Source: Naegleria gruberi (lineage: Eukaryota). Taken from it: a DNA stretch of 1,323 nucleotides. The notes under the pieces are model-generated. The model saw nothing but the letters and a program-made list of their open reading frames with translations, was not told the origin of the DNA and searched no databases. Location of the stretch: the NCBI GenBank assembly GCA_000004985.1, contig GG739446.1. The stretch is one strand, 5' to 3'. The position numbers and the translations under genes were made by a program. Positions 1-1,323 of the stretch are shown here, one piece after another; the first letter of the stretch is position 1; each line of letters starts with the position of its first letter.

Positions 1-374
1 TTTTTCTTTCCAATCACACCAGCAACAACTGATCCTGTATTGATTCCAACTCGAATATTCAATTGATTTTGAGGATGTTCAATATTGTAATTTCTAATCA
101 CTTGGAATGTATCAATTGCAAATCTCAATGTTCTCTCAGGATGATCAGATTGTGGATTATTATGTAAACCTCCAACACAAAAATAAGCATCACCAATTGT
201 CTTGATCTTTTCCAATGAATAAACATCTGTCAAATCATCAAATCCATTCACAATTGATGACAACATTAAAACCAATTCACTTGGATTCATTCCACTTGAC
301 ATTTTTGTAAAACCAACCATATCACTAAAGAAACAAGTAATATCACTGAATCTCTCAGCAATAAATGTCTCACC
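1..374 (-). other. Cyclase homology domain (class III nucleotidyl cyclase catalytic domain), roughly the N-terminal two thirds. It is truncated by the window edge at + 1.
   Basis: ETFIAERFSDITCFFSDMVGFTKMSSGMNPSELVLMLSSIVNGFDDLTDVYSLEKIKTIGDAYFCVGGLHNNPQSDHPERTLRFAIDTFQVIRNYNIEHPQNQLNIRVGINTGSVVAGVIGKK. The two conserved metal-binding Asp are present: in FSDMVGFT (+ 321-323) and in TIGDAY (+ 189-191). KIKTIGDAY and RVGI(N/H)TG-VVAGV-G are canonical motifs of eukaryotic and bacterial adenylyl/guanylyl cyclases. Confidence 0.9.
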
Positions 375-1323
375 TGATTTCAACTTACTTGCAACAGCAT
401 CTGGCAAGATATTTCTCAATAAATTTTCAGAATTTTTCTTCTCCTCCGCTAGAAGTGAATTTTGCTTTCGCTCAGATGTAATGTCTCTCATAATACATGA
501 AATCACCATGGAGCTGGATGAATTACCTTTCATTCCTGATATTTGCGACACAAATATAGTGACAACAGCTGGGAATTTAGTAAGATTCTTTCTAACACAC
601 TCCAATTCAATAACATCTCCATGTTTGGCTGCTTCTTCATTTTTCAATTCACCTATCATCTTGATTATCTTTTCCAATGCTGGGTTTGATTCATCGCTGA
701 ATAATTTGCTAAAATGAGTTCCAATGACATCAGAAATTGACTTGCCAAACATATTTTGAGCAGGCTCATTAAAAACAATAATTTCTCCATTTTCGTTTGC
801 TAATAATGCTCCATCAATCATGCTAGTTATAAACTCCTTATAAGAATCCTGGCTCGTGGAGCTGTTTGTTTCTTTTCTGAATTTACTGGCAAGCGAACCT
901 CCCATGGTGTTATAAAGTGCAAAATTCTTGAAATTGTCATTTGATTCTAAAAAGTCAGTAGATAGATAATTCAAGAACGATTTCATATTGGTAATTTCAT
1001 TGTCATAGGTTTGTAAGCTATGGAATAACAAGTATTGCAGTGTTAACATTAACAAAATTGAAATAATAGCAGAGAGTATCGAAATTGTAATGGAAGGAAC
1101 AGCTGTTAAATCAACAAGAGTGAAAAGAAAGTCTCTAAACTTATCATAAACCATATCACACATATTAAATAATGTTAGCAATTCTGCGAATGCTTCTTCA
1201 GATTGTTTTGATGCATAGGCAGGATTGAAGAACTTTTCACTCACTTGTCCTGCAAGAATAGTAAAGGTTGAGAGATACTTTTGCATACCATAACAATCTT
1301 TTAACAATTCATTGCTCTTTCCA
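1..1323 (-). CDS. Partial CDS, open at both ends: membrane-anchored, PAS-domain-containing class III nucleotidyl cyclase, most likely an adenylyl cyclase. The N-terminal side lies at + 1323 and the C-terminal side runs past + 1.
   Basis: Hand translation of the reverse complement, skipping its first base, gives 440 consecutive sense codons with no TAA, TAG or TGA in frame: GKSNELLKDCYGMQKYLSTFTILAGQVSEKFFNPAYASKQSEEAFAELLTLFNMCDMVYDKFRDFLFTLVDLTAVPSITISILSAIISILLMLTLQYLLFHSLQTYDNEITNMKSFLNYLSTDFLESNDNFKNFALYNTMGGSLASKFRKETNSSTSQDSYKEFITSMIDGALLANENGEIIVFNEPAQNMFGKSISDVIGTHFSKLFSDESNPALEKIIKMIGELKNEEAAKHGDVIELECVRKNLTKFPAVVTIFVSQISGMKGNSSSSMVISCIMRDITSERKQNSLLAEEKKNSENLLRNILPDAVASKLKSGETFIAERFSDITCFFSDMVGFTKMSSGMNPSELVLMLSSIVNGFDDLTDVYSLEKIKTIGDAYFCVGGLHNNPQSDHPERTLRFAIDTFQVIRNYNIEHPQNQLNIRVGINTGSVVAGVIGKK. 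It contains the class III cyclase motifs (FSDMVGFT, EKIKTIGDAYF, RVGINTGSVVAGVIG) and a PAS-type DIT-ERK motif. A stop-free frame across 1.3 kb of A/T-rich DNA is very unlikely by chance. Confidence 0.9.
375..464 (-). other. Helical linker, the cyclase transducer element / signalling helix, between the PAS domain and the catalytic domain.
   Basis: QNSLLAEEKKNSENLLRNILPDAVASKLKSG. The L-L-x-x-I-L-P-x-x-V-A-x-x-L-K pattern sits immediately N-terminal to the catalytic domain. That is the conserved position and sequence character of the transducer element described for class III cyclases. A heptad-like charged/hydrophobic alternation precedes it. Confidence 0.6.
465..839 (-). other. PAS sensor domain, cytoplasmic, with no cofactor assignable from sequence.
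   Basis: KEFITSMIDGALLANENGEIIVFNEPAQNMFGKSISDVIGTHFSKLFSDESNPALEKIIKMIGELKNEEAAKHGDVIELECVRKNLTKFPAVVTIFVSQISGMKGNSSSSMVISCIMRDITSERK. The N-terminal part follows the PAS pattern (D-G-hh--D--G-I---N-a----GY---E-IG). The C-terminal part has the typical beta-strand run (E-R-K-G---V-V--S-I----G---G-V-V--DITERK). It ends in DITSERK at + 465-485, a close variant of the very common PAS-terminal DITERK motif. Confidence 0.8.
840..1022 (-). other. Polar juxtamembrane linker between the membrane anchor and the PAS domain.
   Basis: HSLQTYDNEITNMKSFLNYLSTDFLESNDNFKNFALYNTMGGSLASKFRKETNSSTSQDSY. It is hydrophilic and rich in N/S/T. It is positively charged (KFRKE) a short distance after the hydrophobic segment, consistent with a cytoplasmic face. 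Confidence 0.4.
1023..1130 (-). other. Hydrophobic transmembrane region: one long helix, or a helix plus a preceding amphipathic helix.
   Basis: FLFTLVDLTAVPSITISILSAIISILLMLTLQYLLF. About 23 consecutive apolar residues (ITISILSAIISILLMLTLQYLLF) follow a second, shorter hydrophobic stretch (FLFTLVDLTAV) that holds one Asp and one Pro. A polar, basic segment comes immediately after. Judged by eye from residue hydropathy only. Confidence 0.7.

Follow-up and report, generated by a model that had tools for sequence, protein, structure and literature searches.

A PAS domain joined at near-invariant spacing to a class III cyclase in a fragment of a probable receptor-type adenylate cyclase from Naegleria gruberi

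The coupling of PAS-type sensory domains to cyclases has been described in several settings. In mPAC, a LOV domain (PAS-type) is coupled to an adenylate cyclase and constitutes an established light switch (PMC4526808), and in class III cyclases the coiled-coil linker and the cyclase transducer element (CTE) have been described as the regulatory coupling element (PMC5995499). Bacterial, largely cyanobacterial, PAS-adenylate cyclases carry the PAS domain directly upstream of the CTE and class III cyclase domain, and are mostly soluble or multi-PAS/GAF proteins. In AC8/AC9, NPR-A, and mycobacterial Cya/Rv1625c, the CTE comes right after the membrane or kinase-homology domain. The pangenome of the genus Naegleria has been reported to contain at least 81 cyclases (PMC9928731). 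This cyclase repertoire, among the largest of any protist, includes membrane-bound PAS cyclases in N. gruberi (XP_002674931, XP_002672713) and in its relatives N. fowleri and N. lovaniensis, XP_002674931 being named "membrane bound adenylate/guanylate cyclase with PAS domain" at NCBI.

The window analyzed here is an entire N. gruberi scaffold of 1323 bp. Frame 1 of the minus strand is open throughout (window:1-1322:-), forming a single ORF of 440 codons (at positions 3–1322) that runs off the contig on both sides, that is, a fragment internal to a larger N. gruberi receptor-cyclase gene; its translation matches, with 100% identity, the NCBI entry "predicted protein, partial [Naegleria gruberi]". 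The other frames of both strands contain no ORF longer than 78 aa, and no noncoding feature was detected in the window as an Rfam family or a tandem repeat. All features described below lie on the minus strand and are given in window positions. From N to C terminus, the protein comprises the helical end of an ectodomain, the last transmembrane (TM) helix, a juxtamembrane linker of ∼57 aa, a PAS domain, a polar helix with the CTE, and a catalytic domain, so that the PAS domain stands between the membrane and the CTE, unlike the arrangement of AC8/AC9, NPR-A, and Cya/Rv1625c. The PAS and cyclase assignments rest on scores well above curated thresholds for both domains. Taken as a whole, the window probably encodes the C-terminal signaling portion of a class IIIa adenylate cyclase of the receptor type that works as a homodimer. 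It is an ordinary member of a PAS-cyclase gene family already annotated in N. gruberi. It aligns colinearly with residues 1182–1601 of the closest full-length N. gruberi paralog, XP_002672713 (52% identity over 435 aa), and is 49% identical to the N. fowleri protein P0002. The Naegleria membrane-bound PAS cyclases share the same colinear ectodomain-TM-PAS-CTE-cyclase module and the same PAS and linker motifs; the window differs from them in being a fragment on a 1.3-kb scaffold and in a private six-residue insertion in one PAS loop (Hβ-Iβ).

The catalytic domain (aa 322–440, positions 3–359) is a class III (IIIa-like) nucleotidyl cyclase domain of which the N-terminal two-thirds are present. 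It matches Guanylate_cyc (PF00211) over aa 322–440 with an E-value of 7.3e-32 (110.9 bits vs. a cut-off of 21.9), and this match ends at profile position 119 (positions 3–119 of 183), which indicates that the domain is cut by the contig end. Searched against the PDB, it matches AC8, AC9, NPR-A, and mycobacterial Cya best; both this domain and the helix before it (LLRNILPxxVA) can be aligned directly to these enzymes (Cya/Rv1625c in the mycobacterial case), with the metal Asp residues and the Lys conserved. In particular, D334 (FSDMVGFT) and D378 (IGDAY) align to the Asp residues of FADxxGFT and ILGDCYY in the C1 domains of AC8/AC9, which are metal ligands, and K374, the predicted adenine-specifying residue, corresponds to the Lys in EKIKTIGSTYM of AC8 C2. 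Adenylate cyclases specify adenine through a Lys...Asp pair, for which guanylate cyclases have Glu...Cys. The contig end falls just before the second of these specificity residues. All the listed homologs that extend past this point have an Asp at the partner position, within (F/Y)(A/C)YD(L/C/V)WGDT (KFAYDLWGDT in the closest paralogs), and the paralogs continue as KKFAYDLWGDT(I/V)NxASRMES, with the Asp and the transition-state Asn and Arg all lying beyond the contig end. Because the last third of the domain is outside the window, the predicted catalytic competence and substrate choice rest partly on the paralogs.

Upstream, aa 158–282 (positions 477–851) form a PAS domain made of an N-cap helix and a five-stranded core that ends at the D280-I281-T282 (DIT) junction. 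An initial annotation had recognized a PAS domain from the sequence alone over positions 465–839 (aa 162–286), and this identification is supported both by profile searches and by structure. PAS_9 (PF13426) matches aa 170–282 (E=6.1e-15; 55.8 bits vs. a cut-off of 27) and PAS (PF00989) aa 161–242 (E=2.3e-8; 34.5 bits vs. 22.6), the two Pfam matches together spanning aa 161–282 (positions 477–842), and the TIGR00229 sensory_box profile matches aa 157–286 (E=7e-9; 35.9 bits vs. 22.9). The AlphaFold2 (AF2) monomer model of the domain is confident (pLDDT 89) and displays the five-stranded antiparallel sheet with flanking helices Cα to Fα that the PAS fold requires; in structure searches with this model, the top matches were all PAS folds. 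Across the family, the PAS core spans 93–110 residues and conserves D170-G171, N185, G201, F208, K245, P251, and D280-x-T282, and a Cys242/Cys276 pair is conserved in the Naegleria clade. The sequence DITSERK, with which the domain was said to end, is found exactly where it had been reported (positions 465–485, aa 280–286). According to the model, D280-I281 indeed close strand Iβ, but T282-K286 already start the linker helix.

This linker helix and the CTE occupy aa 282–321 (positions 360–479) and lead to the catalytic domain; the linker helix itself spans aa 282–305 and the CTE, LLRNILPDAVASKLK, approximately aa 298–316. The AF2 model contains helices at 282–305 and 308–315, and a weak match to the Pfam HNOBA C-terminal region covers aa 286–314. 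The CTE segment EKKNSENLLRNILPDAVA aligns to ELREHNENMLRNILPSHVA of AC8 C2 and also to the precatalytic helices of AC9 C2, NPR-A, and mycobacterial Cya. Invariant residues of the linker and CTE are E294, L301, L302, I305, P307, L314, and K315, and the invariant polar residues of the linker are E294, K295, and E299. Counted from the Asp of the DIT motif, the first metal Asp lies 54 residues away in 21 of 22 family sequences. In a second alignment of 30 homologs, the same spacing was found in 26, including six of eight added PAS-cyclases from outside the family, which, where their source is named, are cyanobacterial or actinobacterial; bacterial PAS-cyclases with the identical spacing include those of Dapis sp. 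and Spirulinaceae. The proposal that the PAS domain is wired straight to a class III cyclase by a helical transducer thus holds, given that the spacing is nearly invariant and that the linker ends in a CTE. Such a fixed spacing, shared with the cyanobacterial enzymes, suggests a register-dependent switch used by both. The linker helix is very polar and its hydrophobic residues are LL doublets spaced 11 residues apart. Heptad (3.5-residue) hydrophobic periodicity was not significant, the observed a/d contrast being reached by 3685 of 5000 shuffles, and we therefore do not call the linker a canonical coiled coil.

On the N-terminal side, aa 1–73 (positions 1104–1322) correspond to the last two helices, at the C-terminal end, of an extracytoplasmic helical sensor domain and include C10, the second Cys of a conserved pair. 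They are followed by a TM helix (aa 74–100, positions 1023–1103; hydropathy peak 2.37), the only TM segment visible in the window and the last one of the protein. Homologs possess another TM segment ∼175–200 aa upstream of the equivalent helix, with a predicted helical-bundle ectodomain between the two; in the homolog P0123, for example, hydrophobic segments at ∼1051 and ∼1255 flank the equivalent region. This TM1-(about 175–200 aa helical ectodomain)-TM2 module resembles the four-helix-bundle sensor domains of chemoreceptors, a resemblance to be read with the caution that helical bundles match many unrelated proteins. The 4HB_MCP, CHASE, and NIT Pfam profiles found no match in the window (E≤10) or in six homologs (E≤1), and neither did HAMP or other sensor profiles. 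The juxtamembrane linker (aa 101–157, positions 852–1022) consists of a conserved motif, (R/K)xxLNYLPxDxLE...KNF, and a polar/basic spacer of variable length, in which no Pfam match to HAMP was found between the TM and PAS segments at E≤10. The window protein differs from the two-TM sensor kinases and chemoreceptors that combine a periplasmic four-helix bundle with a cytoplasmic PAS domain (ligand-binding domains of Tar/Tsr/PcaY; layout of WalK/VicK, DcuS/CitA) in having no 4HB_MCP or HAMP sequence match, in being eukaryotic, and in its cyclase output. The conserved K/R of the motif lies 48–61 residues from Asp170 of the PAS domain in 17 homologs. Variable in length and partly low-complexity, the TM-to-PAS spacer speaks against a tight mechanical link to the membrane. 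XP_002672713 is 1736 aa long and has about ten TM/hydrophobic segments and two modules in which ∼200 aa are enclosed by TM segments; ∼1000 residues precede its module equivalent to the window, and they contain a TPR_TmcB region and some eight additional hydrophobic segments (a literature search on TmcB yielded passing mentions only). From these alignments, the PAS-cyclase module is predicted to form the last part of a large polytopic receptor, unlike the bacterial PAS-cyclases, which are mostly soluble or multi-PAS/GAF proteins.

On the basis of this architecture, we propose that two chains pair through the PAS domain, the linker helix, and the CTE, the available structure model being that of a monomer. 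A change in PAS conformation or dimer packing would pass down a rigid, register-sensitive helix to the CTE, which would determine how the two catalytic domains are placed relative to each other and thereby switch cAMP synthesis, by analogy with what has been described for class III cyclases coupled to LOV, BLUF, and phytochrome domains. The trigger could be a small ligand from the cytoplasm that occupies the PAS pocket, or else a conformational signal from the ectodomain and TM helices, with the PAS domain as the last relay or integration point.

The initial annotation had favored a simpler arrangement, in which a single-pass anchor merely tethers a cytoplasmic PAS-cyclase whose PAS domain is the sole sensor. 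The single TM segment of the window fits such a scheme, as does the TM-to-PAS spacer, whose variability and partly low-complexity sequence would let the PAS domain act independently of the membrane part. We nevertheless regard this arrangement as quite unlikely, given that aa 1–73 belong, by alignment, to a conserved ectodomain that in homologs has another TM segment at its far end, and given the many hydrophobic segments and the two TM-bounded modules of the closest full-length paralog. The hydrophobic segment at aa 74–100 is thus real, but it is TM2 of a sensor module in full-length homologs and not a simple anchor. Since full-length homologs hold a further sensor module, which in the closest full-length paralog lies behind ∼1000 more residues with extra hydrophobic segments, the PAS domain need not be the only or the primary input. 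An alternative is that the PAS domain only serves as a dimerization scaffold, keeping the two catalytic domains together, and passes no regulated signal; activity would then be constitutive or set by another part of the protein such as the N-terminal polytopic region. Indeed, the residues conserved in the PAS domain are generic structural ones, the positions predicted to form its pocket are hydrophobic and vary (K/I/L/Q/R at position 238 across the family), and there is weak similarity to cytoplasmic PAS domains that bind no ligand in the WalK, CitA, and DcuS kinases. On the other hand, the strict linker length and the invariant polar residues of the linker are typical of signal-transmitting helices and not of passive tethers, and among homologs the same PAS-cyclase cassette is found behind different sensor modules, so that we consider a pure scaffold unlikely.

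The nearest solved relatives of the window PAS domain, by profile and by fold, are those of FixL and DosP (EcDOS), with which it shares an RK(N/D)GxxFP motif and the terminal DxT motif: the family profile finds the haem domains of RmFixL, DosP, and BjFixL as its best sequence matches in the PDB (E=1e-14 to 1e-13), and EcDOS is the best match in a single-sequence search. These similarities, together with H234 in the F-G loop and with the metagenomic protein P0094, a genuine FixL-signature PAS fused to a cyclase, would suggest a haem-based sensor in which O2, NO, CO, or redox state gates cAMP synthesis. However, the position of the proximal haem His on helix Fα (RmFixL H194, DosP H77) is occupied by L216 in the window, and no His is present there in any of the 20 family members (I8 L5 V4 M2 K1). 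The distal residues are absent as well, with FixL R220 and DosP R97 aligning to I238 and DosP M95 to D236. As a positive control, P0094 shows both the His and the Arg in the same alignment. In this cluster, haem binding is determined primarily by that proximal His (PMC10468136), which makes haem sensing of the FixL/DosP type very unlikely. H234 is shared with two others of the 20 aligned PAS domains (column K8 R4 H3). The output also differs, being a histidine kinase or a c-di-GMP phosphodiesterase in FixL/DosP and a cyclase here. A light-gated cyclase with a LOV-like or PYP-like flavin or chromophore appears scarcely credible, even though the best matches by structure and by profile include YtvA and short LOV proteins, LOV-adenylate cyclases exist, and BLUF photoactivated cyclases are known from Naegleria. 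In an hhalign comparison of the family with YtvA, the adduct-forming C62 aligns to F204 and the flavin-contacting Gln of strand Iβ, Q123, to M278; the window motif is GTHFSKLF, with no NCRFLQ, whereas mPAC has the flavin-binding Cys. Nor is there any Cys in aa 176–241, which leaves no PYP-type chromophore Cys (PYP Cys69, near the start of Fα). The absence of haem-His, LOV-Cys, and PYP-Cys signatures, first noted by eye, is thus borne out residue by residue. Judging from these alignments, the window PAS belongs to the FixL/DosP sequence neighborhood, yet is predicted to be unable to ligate haem in the FixL way, and the proposed switch is most likely triggered through something other than a haem or flavin cofactor. 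An unconventional cofactor may be compatible with the absence of the known signatures. It is tempting, as a long shot, to imagine a eukaryotic offshoot of the FixL/DosP lineage that has lost the haem His and yet senses gas, redox state, or a small metabolite via an unconventional site (for example, His234 or Cys242/Cys276), and so would link a cue from the environment straight to cAMP synthesis, perhaps in the amoeba-flagellate-cyst decisions of Naegleria.

The fragment contains nothing categorically new, but its analysis yields three facts that can be used for de-orphanizing the PAS-cyclase family: a FixL-like PAS domain lacking the FixL-type haem ligands, the 54-residue spacing, and the predicted position of the module as the last part of a large polytopic receptor. 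The spacing provides a ready design rule for PAS-cyclase chimeras. A ligand of the PAS domain, if found, would link a defined cue to cAMP in a relative of the pathogen N. fowleri.

A last feature of the PAS domain is the Ser-run of the loop between strands Hβ and Iβ (SGMKGNSSS, aa 262–270, positions 513–539), GNSSSS itself being aa 266–271 (positions 510–527). Its placement between the last two β strands, as initially described, is reproduced by the model. The suggestion that it lies in a region where ligand pockets vary was not upheld: the loop is of lower confidence (block-mean pLDDT of 82 and 75 for model residues 101–110 and 111–120, vs. 96–98 in the flanking blocks), the insertion is missing from most relatives, and nothing suggests that it shapes a pocket. 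The Ser codons are mixed (TCA TCC AGC TCC, minus-strand sequence of positions 510–521), so the run is no microsatellite; no tandem repeat was seen at the DNA level over the Ser-run. GMKGNS (aa 263–268) is an insertion present in one of 20 aligned family PAS domains, the other 19 being gapped there; as far as this alignment indicates, the Ser-run is a loop insertion specific to one paralog.

The 1323-base window, a complete small scaffold of Naegleria gruberi with a G+C content of 33%, contains a single long reading frame, of 440 codons and open at both ends, on the minus strand (window:1-1322:-). All remaining frames are broken, with no ORF above 78 aa, and scans of the window returned no Rfam family and no tandem repeat. 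The corresponding NCBI entry, 'predicted protein, partial [Naegleria gruberi]' (295 aa, 1323 bp contig), is 100% identical to aa 140-434 and covers Met140 to Ala434 (window 21-905, minus strand), versus 1-1322 on the same strand for the open frame. Because aa 1-139 align without interruption to homologues, matching their ectodomain, TM2 and linker, and because the frame is open across the scaffold, the deposited model begins too late; judging from this alignment, its N-terminus is an artefact of taking the first Met. The domain architecture is already visible in the precomputed Pfam annotation of the identical NCBI protein and already named in N. gruberi annotation. PAS/LOV-coupled adenylate cyclases and the cyclase transducer element (CTE) are likewise established concepts, and a large Naegleria cyclase repertoire is documented (PMC9928731). 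What deserves to be kept is a FixL-type PAS lacking the His, a 54-residue spacing rule common to cyanobacteria, and a large polytopic context.

The initial annotation had placed a PAS domain in a span corresponding to aa 162-286, and profile searches agreed: Pfam PAS_9 (aa 170-282, E = 6.1e-15) and PAS (aa 161-242, E = 2.3e-8) both matched on the minus strand, as did the NCBIfam PAS S-box. The DITSERK motif also lies where it had been reported, at +465-485 (aa 280-286 of the minus-strand translation). With the single sequence as query, the best PAS match was the haem domain of EcDOS/DosP (E = 3e-4); the family profile matched RmFixL (1.2e-14), DosP (1.8e-14) and BjFixL (1.6e-13), with weaker matches to YtvA-LOV (~3e-8) and, weaker again, to cytoplasmic PAS domains from WalK and CitA (~2e-7). 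Fold searches concurred, with top identities of 21-24% to EcDOS and FixL. This kinship speaks for haem sensing by the PAS domain, but FixL and DosP, its nearest solved counterparts in sequence, carry the Fα haem-ligating His (RmFixL H194, DosP H77) where the window has L216. None of the 20 aligned family members has a His in this column, which is occupied by I/L/V/M/K, and the distal residues are replaced too (DosP M95 by D236; DosP R97 and FixL R220 by I238). A published classification holds that, within the FixL/DosP cluster, it is chiefly this His that determines whether haem is bound (PMC10468136). The same alignment shows P0094, a metagenomic PAS-cyclase used as positive control (LMPEHHAANHGRYLQRF...GQGRDLEAKRKD), with His in the H194 column of FixL and Arg in the R220 column, and is therefore able to detect a FixL signature if present. 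Haem sensing is thus very unlikely, and the window PAS is best described from its residues as FixL/DosP-like yet predicted to be unable to bind haem in the FixL manner.

A photoreceptor role is more improbable still: F204 occupies the position of the YtvA Cys and M278 that of the Iβ Gln, and no Cys occurs anywhere in aa 176-241, which excludes a PYP-type attachment site. The alignment columns thus bear out, for haem His, LOV Cys/Gln and PYP Cys, the earlier remark that no known cofactor signature is recognizable. Strands Gβ and Iβ of the PAS core carry two Cys, C242 (window 597-599, minus strand) and C276 (495-497, minus strand), which recur in 7/20 and 9/20 family sequences, respectively; a further Cys is found at the A175 position in 13/20. 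A thiol-based redox role for these residues is conceivable. P0094 itself (a JGI metagenome protein of 755 aa), in which the full FixL-type haem signature LMPEHHAANHGRYLQRF adjoins a cyclase, may be a class III cyclase regulated by haem.

The Ser-run (GNSSSS, aa 266-271, +510-527, minus strand) is present as annotated, and we found no sign that it plays a part in ligand binding. The six-residue insertion GMKGNS (aa 263-268) is specific to the window, the other 19 of the 20 aligned PAS domains having gaps, and it makes the window PAS core, at 110 residues (D170 to D280), longer than any other in the family (93-106). Model confidence drops over the loop (block means of 82 and 75, versus 96-98 on either side), and we read the Ser-run as a paralogue-specific surface insertion. 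Its mixed codons (TCA TCC AGC TCC) rule out a microsatellite.

In 21 of the 22 family members, the Asp of the DIT junction (D280-I281-T282), which closes the PAS domain, and the first metal-binding Asp are 54 residues apart. The count is also 54 in 26 of 30 homologues in a second alignment, among them six PAS-cyclases from outside the family, of which the ones with a named source are cyanobacterial; the spacing is common to cyanobacterial enzymes and the Naegleria family. The exceptions have 55 residues (three sequences) or 72 (one); the latter, P0056, an Actinomycetota metagenome protein whose linker is 18 residues longer, provides a naturally occurring length variant and may shed light on the register rule. 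Linker residues E294, L301, L302, I305, P307, L314 and K315 are invariant in the homologue alignment. EKKNSENLLRNILPDAVA aligns to the helix ahead of the catalytic domains of AC8 (C2), AC9, NPR-A and mycobacterial Cya, a region where Pfam weakly matches the HNOBA C-terminal helix (aa 286-314, minus strand), and on this basis is assigned as the CTE, which has been described for class III cyclases as their regulatory coupling element (PMC5995499). The linker has no heptad hydrophobic periodicity (3685 of 5000 shuffles reach the same level) and is highly polar, with Leu-Leu doublets spaced 11 residues apart; we therefore speak of a rigid signalling helix of constrained length rather than of an established coiled coil.

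The Guanylate_cyc match (aa 322-440, minus strand, E = 7.3e-32) stops at profile position 119/183. D334 and D378 align to both metal-binding Asp of mammalian adenylate cyclases, and K374 to their adenine-specifying Lys. The window ends at ...AGVIGKK, directly ahead of the second specificity residue, which is Asp in every listed homologue reaching past this point; the closest paralogues run on as KFAYDLWGDT(I/V)NxASRMES, providing Asp, Asn and Arg. Reading the last residues from paralogues, we infer that this gene encodes the full catalytic set on one chain, which would imply a homodimer with two symmetric sites producing cAMP.

An exhaustive HMMER protein search with the PAS alone returned many proteins of 1200-1800 aa with one PAS close to the C-terminus. 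These long proteins, from Naegleria, carry Pfam TPR_TmcB, PAS and cyclase, and one is named 'membrane bound adenylate/guanylate cyclase with PAS domain' by NCBI. Among these long proteins, XP_002672713 (P0123, 1736 aa) matches the window protein through its residues 1182-1601, with 52% identity over 435 aa. Its about six N-terminal hydrophobic segments are followed by a TPR_TmcB region, a pair of modules of the form TM-(about 200 aa)-TM, and then PAS and cyclase. The transmembrane part of the annotated 'membrane anchor' stands, but with a polytopic paralogue a simple single anchor is quite unlikely. The two successive modules ahead of the PAS (~769 to 982 and ~1051 to 1255 in P0123) are also seen in P0121, a paralogue of 809 aa, and suggest two tandem extracytoplasmic sensor domains in long Naegleria paralogues.

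Domain order, the His-less FixL-like PAS, the fixed distance from PAS to cyclase and the CTE are observed, as are those catalytic residues that lie in the window. On these grounds we favor, with some reserve, a receptor-type PAS-CTE-cyclase acting as a helix-relayed cAMP switch; a purely structural PAS is unlikely. Two chains would pair, and a shift in PAS conformation or packing would travel along the rigid helix as far as the CTE, changing the relative placement of both catalytic domains and thereby switching cAMP synthesis; class III cyclases coupled to LOV, BLUF or phytochrome domains work in this way (PMC5995499, PMC4526808). The trigger may be either a small ligand that reaches the PAS pocket from the cytoplasm or a signal relayed by the ectodomain/TM module. 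Between the TM-proximal motif and PAS, the spacer varies in length (48-61 residues) and is partly of low complexity, which argues for a PAS partly independent of the membrane part; the conserved, receptor-like ectodomain favors extracellular input.

Of the 11 homologue ectodomains that cover the loop in question, 10 have a Cys pair of variable spacing, C-x(2-24)-C, which likely forms a disulfide in an extracellular loop; the window starts between the two Cys and retains the second, C10 (window 1293-1295, minus strand). At positions 3060-8355 of N. fowleri locus L001 (on VFQX01000033.1), a 951-aa TPR_TmcB gene is followed on the same strand, after a gap of 86 bp, by the gene for the homologue P0002 (721 aa). 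XP_002672713 aligns colinearly over both (residues 116-968 in frame 3, 963-1670 in frame 1), with the frame changing at the junction, so the 'short' P0002 is probably the tail of a long protein, and the pair is probably a single gene, divided by a frameshift or by a short intron that went unrecognized.
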